64,000 nucleotides of DNA from Octopus vulgaris. Its lineage: Eukaryota. The stretch is taken from contig OX597841.1 of NCBI GenBank assembly GCA_951406725.2, positions 22,940,001 through 23,004,000 on the forward strand. The letters are read 5' to 3'. This document shows, one piece after another, positions 21,556 to 56,000 of this stretch; position 1 is the stretch's first letter, and every line of letters starts with the position of its first letter. The translations under genes were made by a program, and so were the position numbers. A model generated the notes under the pieces. The model made no database searches. It saw only the letters and a program-made list of their open reading frames with translations, and was not told where the DNA came from.

Positions 21556-21586
21556 GTAATTATACGAAAGTGATTTATCACAGATA

Positions 21587-29877: not shown

Positions 29878-31119
29878 TCATGGTTTTATTGCCCTGTGTA
29901 TTCTTTGGTGAATAGCAAGACTTGATCTCCCAGGAAACGAATCACCACATGTTTTACACATGAAGCGTTTATCCCCGATATGTGTCCTTTTGTGACCTGC
30001 AAGATTAGAACTATCAGAGAAACGTTTTCCACATGTTTCACAACGGAAGGGTTTCTCCCCACTATGGATTCGTTTGTGTCTCTCCAAATTAGGATTAGTT
30101 AGAAACGACTGCCCACACGTTTCACAACGATAGGGCCTTTCTCCTGTGTGTATGCGCCGGTGAGCTCTTAAGTTACTATTAGAAGCGAAATACTTATCAC
30201 ATATTTCACACCGATAAGGTTTTTCCCCAGTATGTTTCCGTTGGTGATCTACAAGACTGGAATTCTCACTGAAAGATTTCCCACAAATTTTACAGCAGAA
30301 TGGTCGTTCTCCAGTATGAGTCCTAATGTGTGATTTTAAGTGGCTGCTAACGGTAAAAGATTTCCCACAGAGATCACAGGTGTAGGGTTTCTCTCCCGTA
30401 TGTACCCTCACGTGGTTTTTCAAATCAGATTTGACCACAAAAGTTTTCCCGCATATATCACAGTGAAAAGGCCTTTCCCCACTGTGTATTCGTCGATGAG
30501 GTATAAGAGTAGAACGTTGAGAGAATGATTTACCACAAGTTTCACAACGATACTGTTTTTCACCCGTGTGGGTTCTTTGATGAGCTACAAAAGTAAAACG
30601 ATGACAGAATGATTTACCACAAGTTTCACAATGATACCGTTTTTCTCCCGTATGAATTCTAACGTGAACTACAAGATCATATTCATCAAAGAAAGCTTTC
30701 TCACACGTTTCACAACGATACTTTTTTTCCGCTGTATGTATTCGTTTGTGCTTTGTTAAATAACTTTTACAGACAAATGATTTCTCACATAATTCACACT
30801 GATATGGTTTTTCTTCACTGTGTAATTTTTTGTGTTTTCTTAAAGCATGCTTAGTAGCAAAATCTTTCTCACACGTTTCACATCGATATAGTTTCTCTGT
30901 TTTGTGTATTTCTTTGTGCGTTAAAACTTCCTGTTCCGAAGAGAATGTTTTCCTACAAATCTCACAGCGATATTCAGGAATATTTCTTTTATCTAATAAC
31001 ATTTCTTTAGATTCATTAATTAAAGGCTTTTCGTCGCTGAATGTCCGTGTAACAGTTTCTGTATCGGTCTGAACAGTCGGGTTAGAATTGTTCAACTGAT
31101 TAATGTCCTGCATTTTCAT
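29878..31119 (-). CDS. C2H2 zinc-finger protein ZF4, 13 fingers, 413 aa
   Basis: Intact ORF with a ~50 aa leader ([10 protein letters not shown]...) followed by 13 fingers. Confidence 0.93.
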
Positions 31120-34100
31120 TCTTCAGAATTCAGGAATATATTAATATATAACGATCCAGTTCCTTGTCTTGAATCTCATAAGAATTTTGATAACGTTTGT
31201 GGAAAATATGTAATGCAGATATATATTCTATTCGCTACGAAAATGCAGATTGTCAACTGGGTCGTCTCCTTTCTCCTTTAAGAGATTTGGATATAGTTTA
31301 ATAAAGGCAAAAACAATTTTAGAGAGAGATCATAAATGACAGGTAACAGAACTTCAGGTGAACATTTTGTTTTTTCTCACAGCTTATAACAAAACAATCC
31401 CTTAGCATAACAGTAAATCATTGAAAGACAGGGCGATGCAATTTTCCATTAACGATTGTAAGGTGCGCGCAATGATATTCCGAATGAGTTACAAACAATC
31501 GACGATGTAACTTCATTTATGATGGAATTAATTAATGATGAAGGTGATAGAACACTGACCCTGAAACATGTAGGCAATCGGATGTCGTCCACAAACATTA
31601 ATGTGTCCTCGTAATATAATTATTACACATTATAACAATTAAATTGCCGAAACGATGAAGGTATCGGTGACATAGGTTAAAAGTCCCCAACAAAATTTAG
31701 AACATTCAGAAATACCATTCTTTCAAATGACCAACCCGTTGTTAATCAAAAGGTATTTGCCAGCAAAATAATTATTTCTTATCAACGAAATAGTCTCTTC
31801 GTGCTCCTTCAGCCTGCGAAAAATAGCCACCGAATTTGCCTCAAATAATGAATCCAAAGCTAAAATCTACGTGTTTAAAAGTGAAAACAAACTTAACGGC
31901 CGAATTAATGTTTCTCTTAGTTTAATGTAAGTTATTAAACAAAACGTTGTTTTTGTTTCCTATACATGGAATAACACCAACATGGCAATCTTTCGGTATT
32001 GGTAAACAATATCAGTCACCCACTCAAAGAGGTTTTTTTTCTTCACTTTCTCAGCGTCCAGCGTCCTGGTATTAAAAAAACCTACGAACAGAGCTCGAAA
32101 GATTGCTTGGAGATACATAGCATGTTTCATAAATCTGCCAGTTTAAAGTATCGTCAAGCATATACCTTTTAAAGTAGCTCTTTCGTTATTCTATATTAAA
32201 TTAATATAACGTGGGTGTATAAATTTTACATATTTTATACTAACATATAAAAATATGTACAAAACTGATTAATACGATTAATAACCAGGCTAGCAAGAAG
32301 CTGGAGGGTGTGTGTTTTTATTGGCTAAACTGGCAACATGACCATTCCGAAATACAACAATATCTGGAGGCGCAATGGCCCAGTGGTTAGGGCAGCAGAC
32401 TCGCGGTTTCGATTCCCAGACCGGGCGTTGTGAGTGTTTATTGAGCGAAAACACCTAAAGTTCCACGAGGCTCTGGCAGGTTGTGGGGTGGCGAACCCTG
32501 CTGTACTCTCTCACCACAACTTTCTCTCACTCTTACTTCCTGTTTCTGTTGTACCTGTACTTCAAAGGGCCGGCCTTGTCACTCTCTGTGTCACGCTGAA
32601 TATCCCCGAGAACTACGTTAAGGGTACACGTGTCTGTGGAGTGCTCAGCCACTTACACGTTAATTTCACGAGCAGGCTGTTCCGTTGATTCGGATCAACC
32701 GGAACCCTCGACGGAGTGCTTCTTCTACAACAATATCTGTTTCAACACACGATTTCACATAAAAAGTCTTGCACAACAAATAAATAAACATAAGATTAAA
32801 TCATTTAGCAATTAAACTGGACGTATCTAGCCAAAACATTCTTCTTAGTTTATGTTCAAACTGGTCAGGTCTGGCCTCTCATACCTATCATACAATATCT
32901 TTCTAAAAATTTAGTTTCCTCATGAAAATCTCAAAGCTACAGGATATGCAGGATTAATACAAAACGATGTGGATGAATAAGCATTACTTTTGAAAGAATT
33001 ATGTGAATGCAAAAGATTTAAATCAAAAATTGAAACTTGTTCAACTCAGTTTTGTGTAAAAGTTTAATATTTAAGTAATTTGCTATTAACTCTTTTGTTA
33101 CCATATTAAACCAACGGCTAGAAATTCTCTGAAGCAGCAACCCTCCTGATTTTATCAATGAGCCACCATTGCCTGGTGAAAAGGATTTTCCTGCAACAGT
33201 CCTGTGCTGGTGCCATGTAAACGTGTTCATGCCATTGCCACATTAAAAGCACCCAATACACACTGTGAAAAGGTTGGCATTAGGAAGGGCATCCAGCCAT
33301 AGAAACCAAGCCAAATCAGAGTGGAACCTGGTGCAGATCTCCAGCTTCAGCCAACAAATCCGACCCATGCCAGCATGGAAAACAGATCTTTATCTTCTCT
33401 TTTACTTGTTTCAGTCATTTGACTGCGGTCACGCTGGAGCACCGTCTTTAGTCGAGCAACTCGACCCCGGGACTTATTCTTTGTAAGCACAGTACTTATT
33501 CTATCGGTCTCTTTTTGCCGAACAGCTAAGTGACGGGGACATAAACACACCAGCATCGGTTGACAAGCAATGCTAAGGCAACAAACACAAACATACACGT
33601 TCACACACATATACATATATACAACAGGTTTCTTTCCTTGGTCAGCCCAAGGCTATAGTAGAAGACACTTGCCTAAGGTACCACACAGTGGGACTGAACC
33701 CGGAACCATGTGATTGGTAAGCAAGCTACTTACCACACAGCCACTCCTATGCCTATGTCAAAGGACAATAATTAAGATGATGATGTATAAAGAAGAATAC
33801 TGAATCCATTGCAATTTTTGATAGACAAAATTTTATTTTTTTCCTACACAAAAATATAAGCAATGTCTGTGCTATGAATGACAAAATGTCAAAAGAGTTG
33901 AAATGTTATTGTTACAACAGTGAGAAAGTGAAATGAGAGTCGTTGTGTTGTTGTTGCTGATCGTTCATTGTGGATGTTGTCAGCATCTGTCTATGGATAC
34001 TCGTTGCCTCATCTCTGCTGTCTTTCACTGTTCTCTCTGCTCTAACCCAATGCTCTCTGTCAAGTAGTCGTGCTGCATTTATATTGATGGTTAGGCTCAG

Positions 34101-34226
34101 AAACAAGCCTTTCTCTAATGTGACTGTGAATATGAACACTAGAACGGTTTTTCTCAAGCGTGGATTCCTAAGTGCTTTTTTTTAATCATTTTTTGATCCA
34201 AAATATTTTCCACAGATTTCAAAGTT

Positions 34227-35384
34227 TCATGGTTTTATTGCACTGTGTATTCTTTGGTGAATAGCAAGACTTGATCTCCCAGGAAACGAATTACCACATG
34301 TTTTACACATGAAGCGTTTATCCCCGATATGTGTCCTTTTGTGAACTATAAGATTAGAACTATCAGAGAACCACTTTCCACATGTTTCACAACAGAAAGG
34401 TTTCTCTCCACTATGGATTCGTTTGTGAGTCTTTAAATGGGAATTATTTTTGAATGACTGTCCACATGTTTCACAACTATAAGGCCTTTCTCCCGTATGT
34501 ATGCGCCTGTGTGCTGTTAAGTTACCATTAGAAGCGAAATACTTATCACATATTTCACACCGATAAGGTTTTTCCCCAGTATGTTTTCCTTGGTGAACCA
34601 CGAGGCTGGAATTCTCACTGAAAGATTTCCCACAAATTTTACAGCGGAATGGTCGTTCTCCAGTATGAGTCCTTCTGTGGGATTTTAAGTGGCTGCTAAC
34701 GGTAAAAGATTTCCCACAGAGATCACAGGTGTAGGGTTTCTCCCCCGTATGTACCCTCACGTGGTTTGTTAAATCACATTTGATCACAAAACTTTTCCCG
34801 CATATATCACAGTGAAAAGGCCTTTCCCCACTGTGTATTCGTTGATGGGGTATAAGTGTAGAACGATGACAGAAAGATTTACCACATATTTCACAGTGAT
34901 ACCGTTTTTCCCCCGTGTGGATTCTAACGTGAACTACAAGATCATATTCATCAAAGAAAGCTTTCTCACACGTTTCACAACGATACTTTTTTTCTGCTGT
35001 ATGTATTCGTTTGTGCTTTGTTAAATAACTTTTACAGACAAATGATTTCTCACATAATTCACACTGATATGGTTTTTCTTCACTGTGTAATTTTTTGTGT
35101 TTTCTTAAATAACGATTAGAAGCAAAATCTTTCTCACACGTTTCACATCGATATAGTTTCTCTGTTTTGTGTATTTCTTTGTGCGTTAAAACTTCCTGTT
35201 CCGAAGAGAATGTTTTCCTACAAATCTCACAGCGATATTCAGGAATATTTCTTTTATCTAATAACATTTCTTTAGATTCATTAATTAAAGGCTTTTCGTC
35301 GCTGAATGTCCGTGTAACAGTTTCTGTATCGGTCTGAACAGTCGGGTTAGAATTGTTCAACCGATTAATGTTCTGCATTTTCAT
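34227..35384 (-). CDS. C2H2 zinc-finger protein ZF5, 12 fingers, 385 aa
   Basis: Intact ORF, exactly 28 aa (one finger) shorter than ZF4. Confidence 0.93.
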
Positions 35385-36914
35385 TCTTCAGAATTCAGGA
35401 ATATATTAATATATAACGATCCAGTTCCTTGTCTTGAATATCATAAGAATTTTGATAACGTTTGTGGAAAATATGTAATGCAGATATATATTCTATTCGC
35501 TACGAAAATGCAGATTGTCAACTGGGTCGTCACTTTTCTCCTTTAAGAGATTTGGATATAGTTTAATAAAGGCAAAAACGATTTTAGAGAGAACAGAACT
35601 TCGGGTGAACATTTTGTTTTTTCTCACAGCTTATAACAAAACAATCCCTTAGCATAACAGTAAATCATTGAAAGACAGGGCGATGCAATTTTCCATTAAC
35701 GATTGTAAGGTGCGCGCAATGATATTCCGAATGAGTTACAAACAATCGACGATGTAACTTCATTTATGATGGAATTAATTAATGATGAAGGTGATAGAAC
35801 ACTGACCCTGAAACATGTAGGCAATCGGATGTCGTCCACAAACATTAATGTGTCCTCGTAATATAATTATTACACATTATAACAATTAAATTGCCGAAAC
35901 GATGGATATATCGGTGACATAGGTTAAAAGTCCCCAACAAAAATTAGTACATTCAGAAATGCCGTTCTTTGGGGTTGATTAAATGAGTACCAATTAAAAA
36001 CAGATGTTGATGTAATCTAATTACCCGCTGTCCTGAAATTTCTGGCTTTGTGGCAAAATTTGAAATCAAATATTAGCACACTTCTGTTTTAATGATATAA
36101 AGTAAAACTTAAAGGCAAATATATTTCTTTATTGCCCATATGGGGCTAAACATAGAGGGGACAAACAAGAATAGACAAAGGGATTAAGTCGATTACATCG
36201 ACCCCCAGAGCGTAACTTGTACTTAATTTATCAATCCCGAAAGGATGAAAGGCAAAGTCGACCTCGGCGTAATTTGAACTCAGAACGTAACGGCAGAGGA
36301 AATACCCTTAAGTATTTCGCCCGGCGGGCTAACGTAATATGAAAAATATCTAGCTTCTGACCAGTGTAATTCAGAATTTCAAGAAAATACTCTCATTTAA
36401 TATCTCAGAAGATTGAATTGATTCAATCAACTTAGTCTATGACAAATGCTCTAAAATACTTTTATTTCAGTCCTTTAGCATTCAAAAGTAATGCTTATTT
36501 ATTCATATTGTTTGAATTAATCATGCATTATCTCTGTTACGATATAGGTATACACGTCTGGTGTAAAATGGTATTACATAAATAAATAGTTGGTTGTGGT
36601 TATCTAACAATAACCTATAGCAGAAATATATATTAACACAGAACGCATTCCGTATTACTCAGGCGTAGGTATGATACTCAGTATTTACTGTTCAACTACC
36701 GACTGCTAAATCATCACATATCAAACTAACACCCATTTCTTTATTTTGTGCATCAGGACAAGTGAGGCCATAACTTGTGGCCTCTACCTGGGATGTAGCC
36801 AGCCCACTTATGCATACGTTTCTTCCTTGGGACACAAAACTCTGCTTGCGAGTACCTGTTGAGGCAAGTGAAATCGGAATTGAAATCGAAATTTCGTTTG
36901 CCACAGTAAGCAGG

Positions 36915-37500
36915 CAATCTTCCTCTGTATGGTAGAGGATGGCTGCCACCTGCCATGCCTCGTCAATTTCAAGGGGCAATCTACCTATCCTTACTCTGGG
37001 CGCTCGTTTGCCACAGTAAGTAGGCAGTGGTGCCCACTCAGCCGATTTCAAGGCCACAGTGGAGTATTTATTTATTTGCTTCATTTTCGTTTACAAAGCA
37101 CACCTCCACCATGCCGAATGTCCGCCCTCTGGTGTAGAACGTGGTACAGACCTTCACCTTTCTCAAACACTCTTCTACTGCTTCTGTCGCTGCTATTTCT
37201 ACCTTCTTCGTTGCTATGTTTAACGTTCTGTAGATAATAGTTCTTTTCTCGATATTCTCAATAACTTCTTTGGGAGGCGTCAGCCTAAGACAGTCTCCCT
37301 CCTTTTGCAACAAACTGTTATACTTCTTGAGGTTCTTATCTTTAACTTCTTATTCCACGGACTTGCAGTAGCTCCGCTGACAGGCTTTTGCCAGTCGCTG
37401 CAGCATAACTGCCCGCTTGTACTGGTCTATTTTCCATGTTATTTACAACTTCACCCATAAATGGGGAAGACAAATAAAAATTCCAACAAATTCATCAGGT
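36915..37500 (-). mobile_element. Degenerate Gag-like LINE ORF1 relic, short copy
   Basis: MENRPVQAGSYAAAT... through frameshifts to RGRTFGMVEVCF...PRVRIGRLPLEI; paralogous to 47165-47750. Confidence 0.55.
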
Positions 37501-39511
37501 TAACAATCATCATCATCGTTTAACGTCCGCTCTCCATGCTAGCATGAGTTGGACGATTTGACTGAGGACTGGCAAACCAGATGGCTGCACCAAGCTCCAA
37601 TCTTGATCTGACAGAGTTTCTACAGCTGGATGCCCTTCCTAATGCCAACCACTCCGAGAGTGTAGTGGGTGCTTTTGTATTCCACCAGCACAAGGGTCAG
37701 TCAGGCAGTTCTGGCAACGACCTCGCTTGAATCCTTTTACACATGCCCCCAGCACAGGTGCCAGTAAGGTGACATTGGTAACGATTCCGCTCGAATGGTT
37801 GCCCTTTTACGTCCCACTGACACGGAAGCCAGTTGGCAACGGCCACGCTCTAATGGTCTTTTTTTACATGCCACCTGGACAGCAGCCATTCCAGCGGCAC
37901 TGGCAACGACCTCACTCGAATGTTTATTCACGTGCCACCGGCACAAGTGGTAGTGAGGCGATGCTGGTAATGATCACGCTTGAATGGTGCTTTTCACGTG
38001 CCACCGGCATAGAAGCCACTAAGCCACACTAGCAACGACCACGCTCGATGGTGCTCTTAGCGCTCCACTAGCTCGGATGCCAGTCCTCGAATAAGAATTA
38101 CAGTACTCACATTTCCCAATTTACTCAAATACAACGACGACGTCAAACTATCACCCGTCAACTATTCCCATGACAGTTCTCTCAGCCCTAAGGCAGCAAG
38201 CTGGCAGAAACGTTAGCACGCCAGGCGAAAGGCTAAGCATGACTAATTCAAAACAATATGACATTTACGGTATATAGGCGCAGGAGTGGCTGTGTGGTAA
38301 GTAGCTTGTCTACCAACCACATGGTTCCGGGTTCAGTCCCACTGCGTGGCATCTTGGGCAAGTGTCTTCTGCTATAGCCCCGGGCCGACCAATGCCTTGT
38401 GAGTGGATTTGGTAGACGGAAACTGAAAGAAGCCCGTCGTATATATGTATATATATATATATGCGTGAGTGTGTTTGTGTGTCTGTGTTTGTCCCCCTAG
38501 CATTGCTTGACAGCCGATGCTGATGTGTTTGCGTCCCTGTCACTTAGCGGTTCGGCAAAAGAGACCGATAGAATAAGTACTGGGCTTACAAAGAATAAGT
38601 CCCGGGGTCGATTTGCTCGACTAAAGGCGGTGCTCCAGCATGGCCACAGTCAAATGACTGAAACAAGTAAAAGAGTAAAAGAGAGAGAGTATCTAAAGAT
38701 GGCTATAGCGAGTGTAACTCTTTAACATTCAGATTCTTGTGTGAAATGTAATGTTGAATCCAGCAAAGTCCATCTTCTCACCCCTACCATACATCAATGG
38801 AAATTGTAGTTGTGATACCAGTGCGGGTGGCACATAAATGAACCATCCGAACATGGCTGTTGCCAGCGCCGACCCGACTGGCCTCCGTGCTGGTGGCACG
38901 TAAAAAGCACCCTCTATGCTCATGGAGTGGTTGGCGTTAGGAAGGGCATCCAGCTGTAGAAACACTGCCAGATCAGACTGGAGCCTGGTGCAGCCTTCTG
39001 GCTTCCTAGACCCCAGTTGAACCGTCCAACCCATGCTAGCATGGAAAGTGGATGATGATGATGAAACAATACACTGTTTATTAAACTCACAATGGAAGTG
39101 CAAATAAAGTTATCATCTACTCTTGAATTTCAGCCGCTTGTTTTTTTGTAGTATATAATATTCTTAAGCAAGCAAAGCACCCATTACACTCTCGGAATGG
39201 TTGGTGTTAGGAAGGACATCCAGTTGTAGAAAAAACAACGCCAAACCGACTAGAGTGTGGTGCAGCCTTCCAGGCTGTCAGCCCGGTCAAACTGTCCAAC
39301 CCCATATCAGCATGGACAATGAATGTTAAATGATGATGATGACGATGATGATGATAATGAATCAACATCTCAGACAACATTTTCATTGATCATGACACTT
39401 ATAAAAACCATCCCCTTTTTTCAAGCAAGCTTTTACTGCACAAGCAATATATATATATATATATATATATCATCATCATCATCATCATCGTTTGAAATAT
39501 ATATATATATG

Positions 39512-39677
39512 TGCTTTATTTAAAAGCAGCAGATTCAACAAAACCTGTTACTTGGAGTTTCACGTTCCCGTTCGTCGGACAGTTTTGTCAAAATTTTAAC
39601 AAAACTGTCCGACGAACGGGAACGTGAAACTCCGAGTAACAGGTTTTGTTGAATTTCTGCTGCTTTTAAATAAAGCA
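39512..39677. repeat. Near-perfect ~80 bp-arm palindrome; each arm contains a minimal hammerhead motif
   Basis: Arms are reverse complements around ~39593. The right arm (39598-39650) reads stem I CTGT/ACAG, CCGACGA, stem II ACG-GGAA-CGT, GAAA, stem III ACTC/GAGT, GUA. Confidence 0.8.
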
Positions 39678-40034
39678 TATTACTCTACCCCTGGTATTTG
39701 AGTGCTCTTTTTTTCCTCCTTGTTTCACATTTATGTGTTTACTCCGGTATATATATATAATAGAAATATGTTACAAAAAGAAAATAGAGACTATACGTGG
39801 TAATGTAAGGGGAAAGTAAGAAAAATAGACGAAAATGCACGTTGTAAATCAAAAAAGTGAAGGGTTTTTATGAAAAGTAAGGAAAGATATATACAATTAG
39901 ATGAACTGTGGTAGGAATAAAAGCAATAAAAGTCATTATTGTGAAATTATTAAAGAGATTGAACCATACCGGTTTCGTAAATTACTCATCATTGCTTTGA
40001 ATACAACAATTCATTGCTTTGAATGCACACCAAT

Positions 40035-40075
<41 letters not shown>

Positions 40076-40825: not shown

Positions 40826-40918
40826 CCTTTACTCTCGACATATGTTTCGAAGACAACATGGTTTCATTCCAAAGGAATAAAGGGAGCATTATGCAATCTT
40901 CTCATCAGGAAAGAAAGG
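40826..40918 (-). ncRNA. Type I hammerhead ribozyme with canonical core
   Basis: Minus strand: CCTTTCTTTC-CTGATGA-GAAGA...TCTTC-GAAA-CATATG-TC-GAGAGTAAAGG, i.e. stem I, CUGAUGA, long stem II, GAAA, palindromic stem III ACAUAUGU, GUC cleavage site (between 40837 and 40836). Confidence 0.8.
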
Positions 40919-43799: not shown

Positions 43800-44964
43800 T
43801 TAGGGCACTGCAATAGCACTGTGTACTTTTTGGTGAATAACAAGACTTGTTCTCCCAGAAAACATATTCCCACACGTTTTACACATGAAGCGTTTATTAT
43901 CCCCAGTATGAATCCTTTTGTGAACTATAAGATTAGAACTATCAGAGAAACATTTCCCACACGTCTCACAATGGTAGGGTTTCTCCCCGCTATGGATTCG
44001 TTTGTGTCTCTTCAAATGACAATTATTCTTAAATGACTCCCCACATGTCTCACAACGATAGGGCCTTTCTCCTGTGTGTACCCGCCTGTGTGTTGCTAAG
44101 TTACCATGAGAAGCGAAATATTTATCACATGTTTCACAATGATAGGGTTTTTCTCCAGAGTGTCTCCTTTGGTGAACCACAAGACTGGAATTCGTATTGA
44201 ACGATTCCCCACACATTTTACAGCAGAATGGTTTCTCTCCACTATGAATCCTCCTGTGTTTTTTTAAAACGCTTCTAACATTAAACGATTTGCCACAGAG
44301 ATCACAGGTGAAGGGTTTCTCTCCCGTATGTACCCTCACGTGGTTTTTCAAATCAGATCTGCTCACAAAACTTTTCCCACATATATCACAGTCAAAGGGC
44401 TTTTCCCCACTGTGTATTCGTTGATGAGCTACAAGAGTAGAACGTTGAGAGAATGATTTACCACACATTTCACAACGATAGTTTTTTTCCCCCGTGTGGA
44501 TTCTTACGTGAACTACAAGATCATATTCATCAAAGAAAGCTTTCTCACACGTTTCACAACGATACTTTTTTTCTGCTGTATGTATTCGTTTGTGCTTTGT
44601 TAAATAACTTTTACAGACGAATGATTTCTCACATAATTCACACTGATATGGTTTTTCTTCACTGTGTAATTTTTTATGATTTGTTAAATAACGATTAGCA
44701 GCAAAATCTTTCTCACACGTTTCACATCGATATAGTTTCTCTGTTTTGTGTATTTCTTTGTGCGTTAAAACTTCTTGTTCTGAAGAGAATGTTTTCCTAC
44801 AAATCTCACAGCGATATTCAGGAATATTCCTTTTATCTAATAATCATTTCTTTAGATTCATTAATTAAAGGCTTTTCGTCGCTGAATGTCCGTGTAACTG
44901 TTTCTGTATCGGTCTGAACAGTCGGGTTAGAAGTGTTCAACCGATTAATGTCCTGCATTTTCAT
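43800..44964 (-). pseudogene. C2H2 zinc-finger gene ZF6, 12 fingers, broken by one 1-bp insertion at ~44844 (pseudogene or assembly error)
   Basis: The paralogous ATG is at 44964. GAAATGATTATTA replaces GAAATGTTATTA and gives an early TAA; everything downstream is one open finger frame. Confidence 0.8.
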
Positions 44965-46379
44965 TCTTCAGAATTCAGGAATATATTAATATATAACGAT
45001 CCAGTTCCTTGTCTTGAATCTCATAAGAATTTTGATAACGTTTGTGGAAAATATGTAATGCAGATATATATTCTATTCGCTACGAAAATGCAGATTGTCA
45101 ACTGGGTCGTCTCTTTTCTCTTTTAAGAGATGTGGATATAGTTTAATAAAGGCAAAAACGATTTTAGAGAGAGATCATAAATGACAGGTAACAGAACTTC
45201 AGGTGAACATTTTGTTTTTTTCTCGTAGCTTATAACAAAACAATCCCTTAGCATAATAGTAAATCATTGAAAGACAGGGCGATGCAATTTTCCATTAACG
45301 ATTGTAAGGTGCGCGCAATGATATTCCGAATGAGTTACAAACAATCGACGATGTAACTTCATCTATGATGGAATTAATTAATGATGAAGGTGATAGAACA
45401 CTGACCCTGAAACATGTAGGCAATCAGATGTCGTCCACAAACATTAATATGTCCTCGTAATATAATTATTACACATTATAACAATTAAATTGCCGAAACG
45501 ATGGATTTATCGGTGACATAGGTTAAAAGTCCCCACCAAAATTTAGTACATTCAGAAATGCCGTTCTTTGGCGTTTATCAGTTTGGGGTTGATTAAATGT
45601 GTACAAATTAAAAACAGATGTTGATGTAATCTATTTACCCGCTGTCCTGAAATTTCTGGCTTTGTGGCAAAATTTGAAATCAAATATTAGCACACTTCTG
45701 TTTTAATGATATAAAGTAAAACTTATCCTTAAGTATTTCGCCCGGCGGGCTAACGTAATATGAAAAATATCTAGCTTCTGACCAGTGTAATTCAGAATTT
45801 CAAGAAAATACTCTCATTTAATATCTCAGAAGATTGAATTGATTCAATCAACTTAGTCTATGACAAATGCTCTAAAATACTTTTATTTCAGTCCTTTAGC
45901 ATTCAAAAGTAATGCTTATTTATTCATATTGTTTGAATTAATCATGCATTATCTCTGTTACGATATAGGTATACATGTCTGGTGTAAAATGGTATTACAC
46001 AATAAAATACTTGGTGTGGATATATAACAATAACGTATCGCAGAAATATATATTAACACAGAACGCATTCCGTATTACTCAGGCGTGGGTATGATACTCA
46101 GTATTCACTGTTCAACTACCGACTGCTAAATCATCACATATCGAACTAACACCCATTTATTTATTCTGGCACTACGGCCATAACTTAGGGGAGATAGCAC
46201 AAGGACAGACAAAGCAATAGATTGGGGTACATGAAAATACATATCGGATGAATCATGAATATAATTAAAATGAGAATGAAATGGCTTTCCTACCCTCCAA
46301 AGGAGGTAGTTCCATTTTACTGTTTTCTTAAATTAGTTTTACTTTGCAGTCCTGCATCTTTTCTTTAACACAAAATTAC

Positions 46380-47750
46380 AACAAATGCTGCATTATTATA
46401 TCGTCAAAAATTTCAACAGACGGCAGCTCGTCGTATCTATACTGAAATCCTGTTATTTCAACTCTTTCCCCCCCCCCCCAAATAGTTCTACTAACAACTC
46501 CCCTCTTTCTCTCTCCAACAGCACACCCTTCTTACCTTCATGGTTTTCCATTTTCACTCTGATTATATTTTTCATTATTGTTACTCTCTTTTCAATTTCA
46601 ACACTTTTTTTAATATATTATGAAGCTTCTTAATTTTCTCCCTGTACATATTGTTCTCTGATATCCTTCACCACTCGCTTCGTCCATCATAAATTTCTCT
46701 GTCTCTTTCATTTCCTTCCTTCTTCCTTGCTAGTTGAGGGCGACAGTTCATGCGTTCGCATTTCACTTGATTTTATATCTTTTCTTTCTTATTCTTCTCT
46801 TCATTTGTCTTTTTTTTTTCTTATTGGGCTTTTTGGTGGTGATTCGAAGTACTTTTTTCTTTTCCCCACCGTAAATGGCTCTTCCATTTTCTCTTCCTCT
46901 ACTGCTGTACTCTCTTGAATTTCTTTTTCTGTTATTTCACTCTCGTGTTTCTGGGGACACTTGGCCTTCATGTCTCCCCCTTACTCCACACAAAAAACAT
47001 ATTGGAGATCTAGCTTCCACAACAATCCTCAATCTAGTTTCATCCGGCAAAACCAGCTTTTCCACAATCTTATGGATGTCTGGCAGACTTATACGAACTG
47101 TCACCTCTAGCCCATATCCGTAATAGTTCACCTCCGTAGTTTTGGACACTTTCAGAATTTCTACATCTTCCTCTGTATGGTAGAGGATGGCTGCCACCTG
47201 CCATGCCTCGTCAATTTCAAGGGGCAATCTACCTATCCTTACTCTGGGCGCTCGTTTGCCACAGTAAGCAGGCAGTGGTGCCCACTCAGGTGATTTCAAG
47301 GCCACAGTGGAGTATTTATTTATTTGCTTCATTTTCGTTTACATAGCACACCTCCACCATGCCGAATTTCCGCCCTCTGGTGTAGAACGTGGTACAGACC
47401 TTCACCTCACTCAAACGCTCCTCTACTGCTTCTGTCCTTGCTGTTTCTACTTTCTTCGTTGCTATGTTTAACGTTCTGTAGATAATAGTTCTTTTCTCGA
47501 GATTCTCAATAACTTCTTTGGGAGGCGTCAGCCTAAGACAGTCTCTCTCCTTTTACAACAAACCGTTATACTTCTTGAGGTTCTTATCCTTAACTTCTAT
47601 TTCACAAACTTGCAGTAGCTCTGCTGACAGGCTTTTGCCAGTCGCTGCAGCTTAACTTCCCGCTTGTACTAGTCTATTTTCCGTGTTATTTACAACTTCA
47701 CCCATAAATGGGGAAGACAAATGAAAATTCCAACAAATTCAACAGGTTTA
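46380..47750 (-). mobile_element. Degenerate Gag-like LINE ORF1 relic with zinc-knuckle remnant, long copy
   Basis: RLRIVVEARSPICFLCGVRG then, after a frameshift, MKAKCPQ (CCHC-knuckle-like), followed by a K/E-rich tail. No ORF2 is visible. Confidence 0.6.
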
Positions 47751-49051
47751 TAATAATCATCATCATCATTTAACGTGCTCATGATAAGTATTCTTCAATG
47801 TCAGTAGATTAGAAGTTTAGATTTGTGAGAAATTTTCTTACATCAAGCAATTAAAATATTTTCCTTTTGTATATATTTGTTTGCCTTTTTAAGAGACCCA
47901 CCCTCCTCTTCACTGTCAGGAGGCACAAGCACTTACACACACATGTACACATGCAACGAGAATTTCTGCCTACCAAATTCAATCACAAAGCTTTGGTTGG
48001 CCGAAGGCTAAAGCAGAAGACACTTGCCCAAGGTGCTGTGCAGTGGGACTGAACTCGAAACCATGTGGTTGAGAAGATGGTTAATGCTAAAAGATTTACA
48101 AAGAATACTTTCAACAAATCTTCTGAATATTCTCCTCCTGGACATAACTAGTAACAACAAGGCTTTTGAATGTATAATTTTCCACAAATTTTATAGACAA
48201 ATGTTTTACTCTTGCATTTTTCTCATTAACCCCTGTACTATTCTAATCAGGATTAATGAGGGATCTCATTGTAATTCACAGTAATGGATTTCCCAAAAAC
48301 TTTAACCCTTCAGCACATAAACTAGCCATATCTGACCTCAGATACCGGTCGAACCGTCCAACCCATGCTAGCATGGAGAACAGACGTTAAACGATGATGA
48401 TGATGGTGATGACTGTAAGTTTCAATCAGTATTGAATTTTGTTTGTTCGATATTTACATCCATTTGGTAAAAATTAAGAGATAAACTCATCAATAATTTG
48501 AATGACAATTGTATGACATTTTTATATGTATTTGTCTCTCTAAGTGAATATAGAAAAATAGACAATACACTGTTTATTAAACTCACAATGGAAGTGCAAA
48601 TAAAGTTATCATCTACTCTTGAATTTCAGCCGCTTGTTTTTTTGTAGTATATAATATTCTTAAGCAAGCAAAGCACCACTACACTCTCGGAATGGTTGGC
48701 GTTAGGAAGGACATCCAGTTGTAGAAAAAACAACGCCAAACCGACTAGAGTGTGGTGCAGCCTTCCAGGCTGTCAGCCCGGTCAAACTGTCCAACCCCCA
48801 TATCAGCATGGACAATGAATGTTAAATGATGGTGACGATGATGATGATAATGAATTGTTAACATCTCAGACAACATTTTCATTGATCAGGACACTTATAA
48901 AAACCATCCCCTTTTTCCAAGCAACCTTTTACTGCACAAACAATATATATATATATATAAAATAATAATAATAAATATTAGGGAATAAATCCAAATTTAC
49001 AGGGAAAAATCAGATTTATGATTGAATCCAATTTTATAGTAAAATATAATA

Positions 49052-49288
49052 CAATATTAATTAGAGACAAAACCACTATTATGCAAATCAAACAAAGAAA
49101 GACTTAATCCAATACATTAAAAATTTTATATAAATTAAATATAATTAAGATTAATTAAGATATCTAACACCAACCATTCTGAGAGTGCAATGGGTGCTTT
49201 GCTTGCTTAAGAATATCTTAATTAATTTTTTATGTATTGGATTAAGTCTTTCTTTGTTTGATTTGCATAATAGTGGTTTTGTCTCCAA

Positions 49289-49296
<8 letters not shown>
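49052..49296. repeat. ~70 bp inverted repeat inserted in a (TA)n tract
   Basis: 49052-49125 is the reverse complement of 49224-49296. Confidence 0.8.
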
Positions 49297-49348
<52 letters not shown>

Positions 49349-51113
49349 AATATGTTACAAAAAGAAAATAGAGACTACACATGGTAATGTAAGGGGAAAG
49401 TAAGAAAATTAGACAAAAAAAACACATTGGAAATCAAAAAAAGTTAAGGCTTTTTATGCAAAGTGACGAAAGATATATACAATTAGATGTTTTGTGTTTA
49501 ACCTCTTGTGGGTAGTAAAGAAATGGGTATCTTTTAGGAACTTTTCATTGCATGGGTAGCCCCAAAGGAGAAAAGTCAAGTTGATAAATCATTTTTTCTG
49601 CTTCATCGAACAGCTCCTGAAATTTTTCTTCGCTGCATATAGCTCCCCACCTTCACCAGTTTGACATTATGCAACATGCTACCCATATTGACAATGGTAC
49701 TTTGAAAAGATCTGCTGAATCCTTCAAGGAATTGAAATAGTGAAACTACAAATTGCAGTCCAAGAATACAGTTGCCCATAGAGTGACATGTAAGAATACC
49801 ATTAGTTCTGGATGTAATGTTGGTGCCAAACTCATTGGTTGCTTCTTGTAAAGAAATGAGGACATCTGAATAATTTTGAAGGTCTTTGACTGGAGAAATT
49901 CGTTAGCCATCGAGTAGGATAAAGGCTTTAAGGGGCATGGTGATGATACTTCCTTTTTTTCATCATGTGATAAATATGTGTGCTTAAATTTCCCTTATGT
50001 ACTATATAGTTATTTCTTTACTACCCACAAGGGGCTAAACACAGAGAGGACAGACAAACGGATTAAGTCGATTATATCGACCCCAGTGCATAACTGGTAC
50101 TTAATTTATCGACCCCGAAAGGATGAAAGGCAAAGTCGACCTCGGCGGAATTTGAACTCAGAACGTAGCGGTAGGCGAAATACCACTAAGCATTTCGCCC
50201 GGCGTGCTAACGATTCTGCCAGCTAGCTGCCTTCCCAGTTCCTAAAAGATACCAGGAAGGAAATGCATTAAAATATCAACACTGCACTGTTTTGGATCAT
50301 TAGAAAGAGCAGTACTTGTAGGTAGTGGATACTGCAATAGCAAATTTGAAAGATAATTTCTTTTCGGGATTTAGCAGATTATGAAAAACTGAGCAATATT
50401 TTACTCAATGGAAATTTTGTGCTGAAGTGATCATGCAGTATTCAGAGCTTGATGAATTTCCTTTAACCCTTTCGTTACCAACCAGGCTGAAACCGCCTCT
50501 GGTTCTGTAGTACAAATGTCTTGTTTTCGTAAGTTTTGAATTAAAATCTTCCACCAAACCTTAGTCACAATTACTAGCTTAATTACTAACACTAGCTTAA
50601 TGATAACCAAGTTATTTTACTAAATTCTTTGTTGTATCTAAAATAATTGAGAGAAACATAGAGCATCTCAAAATAAATATAGTAATGAAAGGGTTAAGGA
50701 ATGAAATAGTTTTTTATAGAAATCATCATAGTGGATCATCTCTCAAGGATCATTGTAAAATATTTGGTGAAATGCAACCAGAAGACCATCGCATGTTTCC
50801 AAATGTTGAGCGGTTGCTCAGTCTACTTTTTTTATTCCTTCTCGAGCCATTCCTGGCTCATAAGGGCCGGTTTCCCGTTTCCTTGGCGTATAGGTTCTCC
50901 ACCTGGATGGGACGCCGGTCCGTTGCAGGTGAGCTGCAAGATGCAGGAGGAAAGAGTGGGAGAAAGTTGTGGCAAAAGAGTCACCAGAAATTCGCAAAGA
51001 GCTTAGGTGTTTCACTCATAAACACACACATTGCCCGGTCTGAGATTCGAACCCGCGATCCTTCAACCCCGAGTCCGCTGCTCTAACCACTAGGCCATGT
51101 GCCTCCACTCAGT

Positions 51114-52322
51114 CTACTTATAGTGTGTCCAACCAGTTCTTGTGAGGATGAAAGATCTTTTAGGGCACTGCAATAGCACTGTGTACTTTTGGTGAATAAC
51201 AAGACTTGTTCTCCCAGAAAACATATTCCCACACGTTTTACACATGAAGCGTTTATTATCCCCAGTATGAATCCTTTTGTGAACTATAAGATTAGAACTA
51301 TCAGAGAAACATTTCCCACACGTCTCACAATGGTAGGGTTTCTCCCCGCTATGGATTCGTTTGTGTCTCTTCAAATGACAATTATTTTTAAATGACTCCC
51401 CACATGTTTCACAACGATAGGGCCTTTCTCCTGTGTGTACCCGCCTGTGTGTTGCTAAGTTACCATGAGAAGCGAAATATTTATCACATATTTCACAATG
51501 ATAGGGTTTTTCTCCAGAGTGTCTCCTTTGGTGAACCACAAGACTGGAATTCGTATTGAACGATTCGCCACATATTTTACAGCAGAATGGTTTCTCTCCA
51601 CTATGAATCCTCCTGTGTGATTTTAAAACGCTTTTAACATTAAACGATTTGCCACAGAGATCACAGGTGAAGGGTTTCTCCCCCGTATGTACCCTCACGT
51701 GGTTTGTTAAATCAGATTTGATCACAAAACTTTTCCCGCATATATCACAGTGAAAAGGCCTTTCTCCGCTGTGTAGTCTTTGATGAGCTACAAGAGTAAA
51801 ACGATGACAGAAAGATTTACCACACATTTCACAGTGATACCGTTTTTCTCCCGTGTGGATTCTAACGTGAACTACAAGATCATATTCTTCAAAGAATGTT
51901 TTCTCACACGTTTCACAACGAAATTTTTTTTCTGCGGAATGTATTCGTTTGTGCTTTGTTAAATAACGTTTACAGACGAATGATTTCTCACATAATTCAC
52001 ACTGATGTGGTTTTTCTTCACTGTGTAATTTTTTATGATTTGTTAAATTACTATTAGTAGCAAAATCTTTCTCACACGTTTCACATCGATATAGTTTTTC
52101 TGTTTTGTGTATTTCTTTGTGCGTTAAAACTTCCTGTTCTGAAGAGAATGTTTTCCTACAAATCTCACAGCGATATTCAGGAATATTTTTTTTATCTAAT
52201 AATCTTTCTTTAGATTCATTAATTAAAGGCTTTTCGTCGCTGAATGTCCGTGTAACTGTTTCTGTATCAGTCTGAACAGTCGGGTTAGAAGTGTTCAACT
52301 GATTAATGTCCTGCATTTTCAT
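51114..52322 (-). CDS. C2H2 zinc-finger protein ZF7, 11 intact fingers plus a frameshifted 12th, 402 aa
   Basis: Open ORF. A 1-bp shorter T run at ~51187-51190 relative to ZF6 turns [11 protein letters not shown] into HQKYTVLL... Confidence 0.88.
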
Positions 52323-53089
52323 TCTTCAGAATTCAGGAATATATTAATATATAACGATCCAGTTCCTTGTCTTGAATATCATAAGAATTTTGATAACGTT
52401 TGTGGAAAATATGCAATGCAGATATATATTCTATTCGCTACGAAAATGCAGATTGTCAACTGGGTCGTCTCTTTTCTCCTTTAAGAGATTTGGATATAGT
52501 TTAATAAAGGCAAAAACGATTTTAGAGAGAGATCATAAATGACAGGTAACAGAACTTCAGGTGAACATTTTGTTTTTTCTCACAGCTTATAACAAAACAA
52601 TCCCTTAGCATAACAGTAAATCATTGAAAGACAGGGCGATGCAATTTTCCATTAACGATTGTAAGGTGCGCGCAATGATATTCCGAATGAGTTACAAACA
52701 ATCGACGATGTAACTTCATTTATGATGGAGGTGATAGAACACTGACCCTGAAACATGTAGGCAATCGGATGTCATCCACAAACATTAATGTGTCCTCGTA
52801 ATATAATTATTACACATTATAACAATTAAATTGCCGAAACGATGGATATATCGGTGACATAGGCTAGAAGTCCCCAACAAAATTTAGTACATTCAGAAAT
52901 GCCATTCTTTCAAATGATCCAACCCGTCGTTGGCGTTGCTACGGTATAAGTATCGGTGTACTTCTGTTGTTAATCAAAAGGCATTTGCCAGCAAAATAAT
53001 TACTTATCAACGAAATAGTCTCTTCGTGCTCCCTCAGCCTGCGAAAAATAGCCACCGAATTTGCCTCAAATCCAAAGCAATGTTTTTGT

Positions 53090-56000
53090 TTGGTGTTATT
53101 CCATGTATGTGAAACAAAAACAACATTTTGTTTAATAACTTACATAAAAACCATTAAACTAAAAGAAACATTAATTGGGCCGTTAAGTTTGTTTTCACTT
53201 TTAAACACGTAGATTTTTAGCTTTGGATTCATGATTTGAGGCAAATTCGGTGGCTATTTTTCGCAGGCTGAAGGAGCACGAAGAGACTATTTCGTTGATA
53301 AGAAATAACTATTTTGCTGGCAAATACCTTTTAATTAACAACGGGTTGGTCATTTGAAAGAATGGCATTTCTGAATGTACTAATTTTTGTTGGGGACTTT
53401 TAACCTATGTCACCGATATATCCATCGTTTCGGCAATTTAATTGTTATAATGTGTAATAATTATATTACGAGGACACATTAATGTTTGTGGACGACATCC
53501 GATTGCCTACATGTTTCAGGGTCAGTGTTCTATCACCTTCATCATTAATTAATTCCATCATAAATGAAGTTACATCGTCGATTGTTTGTAACTCATTTTA
53601 AATATCATTGCGCGCACCTTACAATCGTTAATGGAAAATTGCATCGCCCTGTCTTTCAATGATTTACTGTTATGCTAAGGGATTGTTTTGTTATAAGCTG
53701 CGAGAAAAAACAAAATGTTCACCTGAAGTTGTGTTACCTGTCATTTATGATCTCTCTCTAAAATCGTTTTTGCCTTTATTAAACTATATCCACATCTCTT
53801 AAAGGAGAAAGGAGACGACCCAGTTGACAATCTGCATTTTCGTAGCGAATAGAATATATATCTGCATTGCATATTTTCCACAAACGTTATCAAAATTCTT
53901 ATGATATTCAAGACAAGGAACTGGATCGTTATATATTAATATATTCCTGAATTCTGAAGAATGAAAATGCAGGACATTAATCGGTTGAACACTTCTAACC
54001 CGACTGTTCAGACCGATACAGAAACAGTTACACGGACATTCAGCGACGAAAAGTCTTTAATTAATGAATCTAAAGAAATGTTATTAGATAAAAGGAATAT
54101 TCTTGAATATCGCTGTGAGATTTGTAGGAAAACATTCTCTTCAGAACAGGAAGTTTTAACGCACAGAGAAATACACAAAACAGAGAAACTATATCGATGT
54201 GAAACGTGTGAGAAATATTTTGCTACTAAGCATGCTTTAAGAAAACACAAAAAATTACACAGTGAAGAAAAACCATATCAGTGTGGATTATGTGAGAAAT
54301 CATTCGTCTGTAAAAGTTATTTAACAAAGCACAAACGAATACATACGGCAGAAAAAAAGTATCGTTGTGAAACGTGTGAGAAAACATTCTTCGATGAATA
54401 TGATCTTGTAGTTCACGTTAGAATTCATACGGGAGAAAAAAACTATCGTTGTGAAACTTGTGAGAAGTCATTCAGTCATCGTTTTACTCTGGAAGCTCAT
54501 CAAAGAATCCACACCGGTGAAAAACAGTATCGTTGTGAAACTTGTGGTAAATCATTCTATCAACGTTCTACTCTTGTAGCTCATCGACGAATACACAGTG
54601 GGGAAAGGCCTTTTCACTGTGATATATGTGGGAAAACTTTTGTGGTCAAATCTGATTTAACAAACCACGTGAGGGTACATACGGGAGAGAAACCCTTCAC
54701 CTGTGATCTCTGTGGCAAATCGTTTCATGTTAAAAGCGGTTTAAAATTACACAGGAGGATTCATAGTGGAGAAAAACCCTACACCTGTGATCTCTGTGGC
54801 AAATCTTTTACCGTTAGCAGCCACTTAAAATCACACATGAGGACTCATACTGGAGAACGACCATTCTGCTGTAAAACGTGTGGGAAATCTTTCAGTGAGA
54901 ATTCCAGTCTTGTAGATCACCAACGGAAACATACTGGGGAAAAACCTTATCGGTGTGAAATATGTGATAAGTATTTCGCTTCTAATAGTAACTTAAGAGA
55001 TCACCGGCGCATACACACAGGAGAAAGGCCCTATCGTTGTGAGACGTGTGGGCAGTCGTTTCTAACTAATTCTAAATTGGAGAGACACAAACGAATCCAT
55101 AGTGGGGAGAAACCCTACCATTGTGAGACATGTGGGAAACGGTTCTCTGATAGTTCTAATCTTGCAGGTCACAAAAGGACACATATCGGGGATAAACGCT
55201 TCATGTGTAAAACATGTGGTGATTCGTTTCCTGGGAGATCAAGTCTTGCTATTCACCAAAGAATACACAGGGCAATAAAACCATGAAACTTTGAAATCTG
55301 TGGAAAATATTTTCGATCAGAAAATGATTAAAAAAAGCACTTAGGAATCCACGCTTGAGAAAAACCGTTCTAGTGTTCATATACACAGTGACATTAGAGA
55401 AAGGCATTTTCACTGCGAAATCTTTTAGCACTAATGGTCCCTTAGAAAGACCAACAAATACACACAAGCGAAAATTGTTTTAACAGACAAATGTAAGAAA
55501 ATTTCTTACGGTACCCCAACATTGAAGAATATTCATTGTGGGCATGTGTTGTAAGAATCAATCTTTTACAGATTTTATCTGAGAAAAAAAGCCTGTATCT
55601 TAATCCTTTAGCACTCACACCTGACATCTACATCAGCTACGTGATTGTTTACTTTTAGAATGAGATTGTAGGGTAGGTGTGAGAAGAAGGAGTTTGCTGG
55701 TTTCAACATAAAGACGGATACAGCTAGTGTAACCCGCTAGCTTTCAGATTCCTTGTCAAATTTAATGCTTATTTATTCGCATAGTTTTCAATTAATCCTG
55801 CATTATCTCAGAGCTTTGAAATTTTGATGATGTGATTGTATATTTTTACTATGACATTGCAGGGTAGGTGTGAGAGGTCAAATCTGGCCTGTTTGAGCAT
55901 AGAACAAGTAGAATATTTGGGCAGGCCAGATATGGCCAGTTTAAGTGCTGAAGGGTTAAAGTGTTTGGGAAATCCATTACTGTGAATTACAATGAGATCC

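Follow-up and report, generated by a model that had tools for sequence, protein, structure and literature searches.

Six duplicates of a KRAB-less C2H2 zinc-finger gene in Octopus vulgaris bear strong signs of repeated exchange and probable finger gains

Six gene copies within a zinc-finger cluster

The DNA analysed here (the window: 64,000 nucleotides of Octopus vulgaris contig OX597841.1, positions 22,940,001 to 23,004,000) carries most of a family of six neighbouring C2H2 zinc-finger gene copies, ZF0, ZF4, ZF5, ZF6, ZF7 and ZF8. A preliminary description of the window had counted five paralogues; five single-ORF C2H2 arrays are indeed present at the positions given below, but the family includes a sixth copy, ZF0 (12 fingers; G000:C28:22930399-22931556), 9.6 kb to the left of the window. 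The six copies are found among 24 arrays of at least six fingers that cluster within 220 kb, and they are arranged both in tandem and in inverted orientation. Their 28-residue period, their C-x2-C-x12-H-x3-H units and their TGEKP-type linkers identify them as tandem (poly) C2H2 arrays, and comparison with Pfam detects 14 PF00096 stretches in ZF8. The features, in window positions, are as follows.

29878..31119, minus strand: ZF4, intact ORF with a 51-aa leader and 13 C2H2 fingers, two of them at position 5
31120..31728, minus strand: shared 5' non-coding block of ZF4, about 610 bp, far end approximate
34227..35384, minus strand: ZF5, intact ORF with 12 fingers, a hybrid finger at position 5
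35385..35975, minus strand: shared 5' block of ZF5, far end approximate
43800..44964, minus strand: ZF6, 12 fingers, leader frameshift near 44844
44965..45574, minus strand: shared 5' block of ZF6, far end approximate
51114..52322, minus strand: ZF7, 11 intact fingers, the 12th frameshifted near 51190, altered tail
52323..52915, minus strand: shared 5' block of ZF7, facing its ZF8 counterpart head to head
53352..53960, plus strand: shared non-coding 5' block of ZF8, either promoter or 5' UTR or both
53961..55286, plus strand: ZF8, intact ORF with leader and 14 fingers
53961..54113, plus strand: ZF8 leader, about 50 aa; the conserved Met is the second one (53967)
54222..54248, plus strand: recognition helix of ZF8 finger 2, a 27-nt divergence peak
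54450..54596, plus strand: ZF8 fingers 5 and 6, tandem versions of position 5, 81% identical; present in ZF4 as well
54702..54848, plus strand: ZF8 fingers 8 and 9, a ZF6/7-type finger followed by a ZF0/4/5-type finger, the linker being half of each

The shared 5' block comprises 610 alignment columns and is 1.8-3.4% divergent between copies. The initial impression that the leader, fingers 1, 3 and 4 and about 600 bp of flank are almost identical stands for the flank but not for the DNA of finger 4, whose protein sequence is near-identical, yet whose 84-nt unit is 4.8-13.1% divergent. Contigs from runs that we guess to be RNA cover the gene and cross its start codon without a joint; they end at differing points of the 5' block (53494 in run X1, 53356 in run X11) and stay below the bar for a hint of expression.

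An in-frame stop lies 3 bases upstream of the ATG, although a further exon upstream of it is conceivable. In comparisons with Pfam, the 50-aa leader matched no family, KRAB was found neither on the leader nor among the 25 families, out of 30, displayed for the ORF, and the PRDM9 domains KRAB, SSXRD and PR/SET were not found in the ORF. The leader is common to other ZNF genes of the genome and to Octopus proteins, at 35-51% identity. A leader profile gave 21 matches, eight of which were looked up, five carrying names, all Octopus; the named ones are ZNF proteins of O. bimaculoides and O. sinensis, and the remaining 13 matches are partial and mostly multi-stretch. Across 12 genes, the dN/dS of the leader is 0.77 with an interval (0.52-1.07) that includes 1, which lends no support to the idea that it represents a conserved effector domain.

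Clustered paralogues together with lineage-restricted relatives are in keeping with an Octopus-specific C2H2 expansion. Vertebrate ZNFs at 37-56% identity dominate the 120 matches listed for the whole protein, with no orthologue among them; searches with residues 1-75 and with the leader alignment gave no homologue, and an Atlas comparison returned generic C2H2 clusters only. Consequently, no outgroup orthologue was obtained from these searches. Five exact sequence look-ups had no match in the collection. An origin of the copies by retrocopying was rejected because they share kilobase flanks.

Two copies carry frameshifts. In ZF6, an extra base in the leader, near 44844, shifts the array relative to the reading frame of the start codon; in ZF7, a base is missing from an A-run in the final finger, near 51190, which costs it the last His. 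Neither change is present among the indels of four runs, and since contigs drop variants, either frameshift may be an error or an allele.

Exchange between copies and finger number

Exchange of DNA between the copies is strongly supported. A PHI-like permutation test yields p=1e-4 on 123 informative sites and the same value on 47 silent sites. Parsimony demands 69 extra steps versus 26 in data simulated on one tree (p=0.002, 500 simulations), and the non-coding flank plus leader demands 13 versus 2.7 (p=0.002, 500 simulations). In a GENECONV-like test, three of the 15 pairs reach the permutation floor and four pass Bonferroni correction. At 65 diagnostic sites, both 3' types occur as tracts in ZF0 (p=0.002) and likewise in ZF5 (p=0.002), whose 3' half is a mosaic of ZF4/8-type and ZF6/7-type tracts. 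As a counterpoint, the AU tests are not uniform: the 3' tree is rejected for flank plus leader (p=0.012), whereas fingers 4-6 do not reject it (p=0.10). The exchange between copies and the gain or loss of fingers that had been proposed for this locus are borne out by these tests together with the finger inventory, and trees from different parts of the gene are not congruent. The nearest neighbour of ZF6 changes along the gene: ZF5 is closest at the far 5' end, ZF0 from there through finger 6, and ZF7 from finger 7 onward. The spacers on either side of ZF6 are duplicates of one another, with 3.9% mismatch over 1724 aligned bases and 2.7% over 1364. ZF6 is thus likely to be a hybrid generated by unequal crossover.

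Finger counts amount to 12 in four of the six copies (ZF0, ZF5, ZF6 and ZF7), 13 in ZF4 and 14 in ZF8. The presence and absence of fingers 5, 6, 8 and 9 across ZF4-ZF8 agrees with the preliminary description; its derivation of all copies from one 14-finger set, however, probably has the direction wrong, as a 12-position scaffold with gains in ZF4 and ZF8 needs fewer events, the direction not being rooted by an outgroup. Fingers 5/6 and fingers 8/9 of ZF8 are two versions of one position each, which makes it more probable that the count of 14 was gained than that it is ancestral. Finger 8 of ZF8 differs from its ZF7 counterpart at 3 of 63 nt, versus 43 of 252 over the next four fingers (Fisher p=0.015), and from that of ZF6 at 5 of 63 versus 42 of 252 (Fisher p=0.11); otherwise, ZF8 is 0-6% from ZF4. 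As to a polymorphism in finger number, runs X2, X12 and X20 are without cover over part of ZF8 finger 8 (94% likeness) and X15 is covered; a hole in contigs proves nothing, and this pattern was set aside.

Two other accounts of these copies have to be weighed here. That they are mis-assembled haplotypes of fewer loci is very unlikely. In their 3' halves, ZF6 and ZF7 are 0-3.6% and ZF4 and ZF8 0-6% apart, and the two frameshifts could be consensus errors, but the same pairs are 4-13% apart in fingers 4-6 and differ in flanks and orientation. Collinear flanks around the copies are 3.7-6.5% divergent and carry different insertions, the window is without any N, no assembly gap is present over 147 kb on the right and 200 kb on the left, and four different contigs of DNA run X2, representing four variants, cover finger 7. 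A 14-finger ancestor with independent finger losses in five copies would account for the presence of every finger type in ZF8, and the linker sequences are compatible with deletion as well as with gain. Moreover, a contig from run X15 (organism B) contains ZF8 finger 8 plus linker with 0 differences, extending 25 letters beyond the junction where the threshold for a bridge is 31, and another X15 contig bridges fingers 5-6-7, so that the long form is not unique to the assembly and could be old. Nevertheless, we regard such an ancestor as unlikely: beyond a prior internal duplication, it would take two or more losses at position 7 and as many as four at position 5, where a single gain at each would otherwise suffice; the single-finger copies have a common Met/Ile codon that is absent from both fingers 5 and 6 of ZF4 and ZF8; and finger 8 is closer to ZF6/7 than the fingers that follow it are.

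Selection on recognition helices and on finger 2

Variation is concentrated in the recognition helices, as previously noted: 70.5 of 135.3 amino-acid changes fall onto 188 of 747 non-synonymous sites, a 3.2-fold density (p=3e-11) that amounts to 2.3-fold once six structural residues are left out. The contact positions -1, 2, 3 and 6 are no more variable than the other helix positions compared (0.40 changes per site versus 0.35 at positions -2, 1 and 5), and the pooled ratio bearing on positive selection at contact residues of recent paralogues is 0.61-0.98. A dN/dS of 0.01 on 72 structural codons reveals purifying selection on zinc ligands and core, the ligands being strictly conserved, and the scaffold is at 0.25-0.32 by likelihood. 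For the pooled helices, the ratio is 0.54-0.79 by likelihood and 0.78-0.93 by counting (0.54-0.98 over all methods), and model M2a does not improve on M1a in any of three set-ups, a comparison of low power that used our own code, a single start and six sequences. Helices of two neighbouring subfamilies have ratios of 0.71 and 0.49. Silent changes occur at half the density inside the helices that they have elsewhere (p=0.013), making the silent yardstick uneven; signs of an import of silent changes from other fingers are weak and mixed (p=0.03 at two-fold, 0.63 at four-fold sites). The helices of fingers 1, 3 and 4 have 0, 1 and 1 amino-acid changes, and dS between the ZF4/8 and ZF6/7 types of 3' array is about 0.22. 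Diversifying selection across the whole array, as had been suggested, is not demonstrated by these values: the pooled helix ratio stays below 1, and finger 2 alone exceeds it. Of the outcomes that the preliminary description named as speaking against its own reading, a helix ratio of at most 1 is observed for the pooled helices, congruent trees are not.

The dN/dS of finger 2 is 4.8 (10 amino-acid changes on 15.4 sites versus 13 silent changes on 96.7; p=0.0005, or 0.006 after 12 tests), a value to be read in the light of the site having been picked from the same data and of clustered changes being counted as independent. It takes the form of a divergence peak inside homogenised DNA. The peak in the helix is 27 nt wide, with 10 replacement changes and a single silent one in the finger unit and a mean pairwise divergence of 0.183 versus 0.012 in the remainder of that unit, and it is bordered on both sides by near-identical DNA without an indel. 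The highest 27-nt window from the flank to finger 1 reaches 0.126 (mean 0.023). All five finger-2 helices read as given in the preliminary description, but its portrayal of them as a patchwork of half-helices is contradicted by the six informative sites, which split the copies 48, 48, 48, 067, 67 and 67 and are compatible with the tree of the 3' half. A genome search for the ZF4/8 helix with at most one mismatch returned two matches, ZF4 and ZF8 themselves, and among 264 fingers in 464 kb the nearest other finger differs at no fewer than 5 of 27 nt; a donor for micro-conversion of finger 2 was therefore found neither in the genome nor in this finger set.

How far selection has shaped the arrays can be viewed from two opposite sides. 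An arms race with transposons, in which array-wide diversifying selection builds a combinatorial repertoire of specificities, would fit the 3.2-fold bias and the ratio of finger 2. It would also fit the divergence of ZF0 and ZF5 from ZF4/8 in helices and silent sites of the 3' half (dS 0.18-0.29), which is 4-6 times that of the downstream flanks (0.037-0.065), as if the arrays resisted homogenisation, and the enrichment of predicted octopus ZNF motifs in transposons described in the cited part of PMC10547256. We nevertheless hold it to be improbable in view of the pooled ratios, the equality of M2a and M1a, the 11 of 12 finger positions that are not above 1, the neighbouring subfamilies, the contact residues that vary no more than other helix residues, and a frameshift in two of six copies. 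At the other extreme, everything might be neutral birth-and-death of redundant young copies with relaxed helices, where conversion stops once indels or divergence prevent pairing and finger 2 persists by chance. Helix ratios near or below 1, the two frameshifts and a divergence that climbs 3' of the finger indels are in keeping with this, but the narrow finger-2 peak with its surplus of replacements and its near-identical, indel-free borders, its height above any window from the flank to finger 1, and the conservation of helices 1, 3 and 4 speak against it, and we consider it just as improbable.

A model for the locus and its relation to known systems

Collectively, we favour, with a probability of roughly 0.7, the reading that six duplicates of a single KRAB-less C2H2 gene, which likely encodes an octopus transcription factor, have undergone repeated exchange, probably on a 12-finger scaffold with gains in ZF4 and ZF8. 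Segmental duplication would have generated the tandem and inverted copies, and in-register gene conversion and crossover would keep the 5' block, the leader and fingers 1 and 3 near-identical, while patching two older types of 3' array (ZF4/8 and ZF6/7) into each other. Out-of-register exchange at a linker may have added an 84-bp finger unit twice. Purifying selection would act on the finger scaffold, with helices 1, 3 and 4 conserved and most others drifting near neutrality, and the differences in finger 2 might have been made, or kept, by selection against homogenisation; some copies may be dying. Such a history would yield proteins that share an N-terminal anchor but differ in their predicted DNA-binding surfaces, and the copies, judged from their predicted finger number and sequence, likely have different targets. 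It is a decidedly speculative extension, and a doubtful one, that we witness an octopus KRAB-free anti-transposon system in the act, in which conversion shuffles a pool of fingers, helices are protected as opsin-like peaks, finger number is polymorphic and the leader is an undescribed effector module.

Gain and loss of fingers, conversion and helix divergence among young ZNF paralogues are familiar from vertebrates, and the locus points to convergence with vertebrate ZNF clusters rather than to a new mechanism. We came across no such finger-level analysis for octopus. The locus offers a compact and clean case in which exchange tracts are mapped, two fingers were probably gained and one helix seems to be under selection, so that six near-identical proteins lend themselves to a comparison of binding.

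PRDM9 is a single gene with a minisatellite-like array of near-identical fingers that is homogenised within the array. The octopus copies are alike in gain and exchange of 84-bp units and in variation of helix residues, but the analogy that had been drawn with PRDM9 fails on anatomy, since fingers within the ZF8 array are only 43-81% identical; exchange, moreover, occurs between genes, and KRAB, SSXRD and PR/SET are missing. The parallel with KRAB-ZNF genes fits as to the mode of evolution.

PMC12513265, in the part cited, puts the C2H2 genes of octopus at well over a thousand and calls the way in which they diversify elusive. As far as the cited parts of PMC12513265 and PMC9068888 go, the coleoid and octopus expansion likewise consists of clustered, lineage-specific C2H2 genes and is covered there by numbers, trees and expression, whereas we address exchange and selection at the level of fingers. 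The lineage-specific poly-zinc-finger expansions treated in the consulted sections of PMC2604467 share whole-finger gain and loss, short conversion tracts and helix change, but there many clades have dN/dS > 1 and conversion is mostly minor, whereas here conversion is pervasive and only finger 2 is above 1; KRAB, SCAN and BTB are absent from the octopus copies. Cyprinid FiNZ-ZNFs, according to the excerpt used of PMC10547256, are also KRAB-less and lineage-specific with a short shared N-terminal sequence, which is, however, highly conserved and encoded by its own exon, whereas the octopus leader lies in the array frame with a dN/dS of 0.77 (0.52-1.07). The portion of PMC3924837 on exon 5 of the red and green opsins depicts a narrow amino-acid island inside homogenised duplicates, much like finger 2, and the octopus array is, similarly, more diverged than both flanks; the difference is that we deal with six copies known from the sequence of one genome. 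Young mouse KRAB-ZFP clusters, in the passages cited from PMC5363842 and PMC12575710, resemble the octopus locus in segmental duplication, the use of both strands, duplicated or deleted fingerprints and pseudogenes, but the octopus copies are without a KRAB exon and their unit, at about 2 kb, is much smaller.

The copies, their leader and their surroundings

Within the 2.8-Gb genome, the window corresponds to G000:C28:22940001-23004000, and the 464 kb around it hold 25 C2H2 arrays, 24 of them with at least six fingers, all within ~220 kb. Re-examination of open reading frames and fingers reproduced the five ORFs, the finger counts and the finger-2 helices of the preliminary description. Its inventory of five in-window copies (ZF4 to ZF8) stands, but a sixth paralogue and two putative frameshifts had been overlooked: a single-base insertion within the leader of ZF6, and a single base missing from the final finger of ZF7. 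ZF0 and ZF8 lie on the plus strand and ZF4, ZF5, ZF6 and ZF7 on the minus strand; ZF0 has its own last finger (VKSNLVV) and the finger-2 helix TNRYLTK.

Zinc-finger genes added to the inventory (C28, the contig carrying the window)
C28:22930399-22931556 (loci L002, L034), plus strand: ZF0, intact, 12 fingers, 9.6 kb left of the window
Window 10001-10651 and 21614-22432, minus strand: second ZNF subfamily
C28:22893326-22917161 and C28:23004129-23019860: further members of the second subfamily

The second subfamily has a MEIKLCE-like leader and its own finger set; helices 2-4 vary and 5-8 are nearly fixed in its upstream trio, and the copy at 21614 carries an internal three-finger (252-bp) duplication. 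Both minus-strand genes of this subfamily sit in a multi-kilobase segmental duplication (window 9884-14667 / 21670-25270; 83-98% identity in pieces). Directly behind one of them runs a 161-aa open frame (window 21235-21717, minus strand), the tail of which we take to resemble the terminal part of a LINE reverse transcriptase. Two dispersed SINE-like repeats form head-to-tail arrays at window 1415-2145 and 3923-4289 (184-bp x4, 177-bp x2). A third subfamily of five or six arrays (C28:23044957-23086425) also appears by eye to be a finger mosaic, with KNSNLTQ, xNSSLxx and xKGDLTR types in varying order.

Leader plus first fingers gave at least 85 genome matches (150 of 13190 candidates scored), and the leader, searched alone, matched 4 loci in addition to the six copies. 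Searching with a profile built from 12 leaders retrieved 21 proteins; eight were examined, and all five with a name are ZNFs of Octopus bimaculoides or O. sinensis, which makes an Octopus the most likely source of the window. No Pfam family matched the leader (window 53961-54113). With a dN/dS of 0.77 (0.52-1.07), the leader is common to the lineage but under loose constraint. Leaders of this MEDVN-like, ~50-aa type occur in ZNF genes of many chromosomes and in named Octopus proteins (loci L007, L008, L010, L011, L014, L063-L068 and L076, and arrays at C28:23045000-23086500), and these genes have 5' non-coding DNA in common too.

The 5' block common to our copies spans 610 alignment columns at 1.8-3.4% divergence. 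ZF7 and ZF8 stand head to head, with ~440 bp between their 5' blocks (window 52915-53352), possibly a common bidirectional promoter; upstream pieces in ZF7 are common with ZF0 (~40 bp) and with ZF4/ZF8 (~110 bp). By eye, DNA 3' of the stop codon (window 55287-55400; matching ends of ZF0, ZF4 and ZF5) resembles a decayed extra finger.

The copies are unlikely to stem from haplotype duplication, since the window contains no N (nearest gap 147 kb to the right), copy flanks are 3-6.5% diverged with differing insertions, and four different contigs of DNA run X2 cover finger 7. A retrocopy origin is disfavoured, as kilobase flanks held in common point to segmental duplication. Run X20, labelled organism A, has many variants in common with X11 (organism B) that are absent from X1 and X2 (window 53300-55500); an X11 contig carries a SNRYL-type finger 2.

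Exchange between copies and the number of fingers

Exchange was assessed on a 12-position alignment from which the extra ZF4 and ZF8 fingers were omitted, with both omission choices tried. Neighbouring informative sites were more compatible than shuffled ones across all 123 sites and across 47 silent sites (p=1e-4 each), with p=0.04 for the 28 coding silent sites and p=0.28 for the 19 flank and leader sites alone. Extra parsimony steps exceeded single-tree simulations over the whole alignment (69 vs 26, p=0.002), in flank plus leader (13 vs 2.7, p=0.002), in fingers 4-6 (18 vs 7, p=0.002) and in fingers 7-12 (14 vs 6, p=0.006); fingers 1-3 showed no such excess (3 vs 1.6, p=0.21). The AU test rejected the 3' tree for flank plus leader (p=0.012); fingers 4-6 gave no rejection (p=0.10). 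In the 3' half, sequences fall into an old ZF4/8 type and an old ZF6/7 type (dS 0.21-0.24), and ZF0 and ZF5 carry tracts of both (p=0.002 each), with switches within and between fingers. Site-compatibility, extra-step and tract tests thus agree with the earlier proposal of finger mosaics built by inter-copy exchange. Along ZF6, the nearest copy is ZF5, then ZF0, then ZF7, and the spacers on its two sides are homologous to each other, as expected of an unequal-crossover product; ZF6 would have arisen from ZF7-like and ZF5-like neighbours, followed by conversion.

Four of the six copies have 12 fingers. The preliminary description derived all copies from one 14-finger set; ZF8 indeed has 14 fingers, but 14 as the ancestral state is less favoured than gain. 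Within ZF8, identity is 81% between fingers 5 and 6 and between fingers 8 and 9 (every other pair, 43-73%), and the 12-finger copies have a single position in place of each of these pairs. Finger 8 belongs to the ZF6/7 type, differing from ZF7 at 3 and from ZF6 at 5 of 63 nt, and finger 9 to the ZF0/4/5 type; the linker between them is ZF6/7-type in its first half and ZF0/4/5-type in its second. Against ZF7, finger 8 differs at 3/63 positions and the next four fingers at 43/252 (p=0.015; the same comparison with ZF6, p=0.11). A single out-of-register exchange would account for the extra finger at 8/9, whereas a 14-finger ancestor with later losses requires a duplication plus several losses. 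The linker sequences fit deletion equally well, finger 7 is as near ZF7 as finger 8 is (3/63), and no outgroup orthologue was found to root the direction of change; we therefore give finger gain a probability of about 70-75%. In run X15 (organism B), contigs match ZF8 finger 8 and its linker with 0 differences and span the run of fingers 5-6-7, so that the long form is present beyond this assembly.

Tests for selection on the helices and on finger 2

Helix positions -1, 2, 3 and 6 constitute the base-contact code of C2H2 fingers. Replacement changes are 3.2-fold denser in the helices (p=3e-11). Pooled helix dN/dS was 0.78-0.93 by tree-free counting; likelihood with two codon models put it at 0.54 (significantly below 1) and 0.79, the scaffold at 0.25-0.32 and zinc ligands and core at 0.01. 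M2a was never better than M1a (three set-ups; custom code, one start). The ratio exceeded 1 at one of 12 finger positions, and finger 4 lay below 1 (p=0.007); two neighbouring subfamilies gave 0.71 and 0.49. Helices have half the density of silent change seen outside them (p=0.013), with a helix-only ratio of 1.5 (p=0.09), and the 3' arrays of ZF0 and ZF5 are 4-6 times more diverged than their downstream flank; standard dN/dS may therefore understate selection keeping old array types apart. In the pairs ZF4/8 and ZF6/7, array divergence matches the flanks.

Finger 2 forms a 27-nt divergence peak (0.18) within DNA otherwise 1-3% diverged. Its 10 replacement changes compare with 13 silent ones over 96.7 sites nearby, giving a ratio of 4.8 (p=0.0005; 0.006 for 12 tests); against the whole-array silent rate, the ratio is 1.6 (p=0.12). 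The proposed diversifying selection or arms race is backed at this one finger only, pooled helices lying below 1. The reading of finger 2 as a patchwork of half-helices did not hold up: the six informative sites nest on the tree of the 3' half, so half-helix shuffling is not required, and no donor helix was found among genome matches or fingers in the surrounding 464 kb. The peak could reflect either new changes being favoured or old differences being protected. Selection acting under gene conversion is reported to give such a pattern (PMC3924837).

Comparison with known zinc-finger systems

The locus is of neither the PRDM9 nor the KRAB-ZFP type; the PRDM9 array is minisatellite-like, with near-identical fingers. 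It is established that young poly-ZF paralogues gain and lose whole fingers, undergo conversion and diverge in their helices (PMC2604467; PMC5363842; PMC12575710). KRAB-less ZNF families under positive selection are known, predicted octopus ZNF motifs are enriched in transposons (PMC10547256), and the octopus C2H2 expansion is documented (PMC12513265; PMC9068888). A finger-level study of octopus ZNF paralogues was not found among the open-literature papers listed (supplements and the 2015 genome paper lay outside our scope), and the process seems undescribed at finger level in this lineage. Set beside these systems, the locus is a real and well-resolved instance of a known process.
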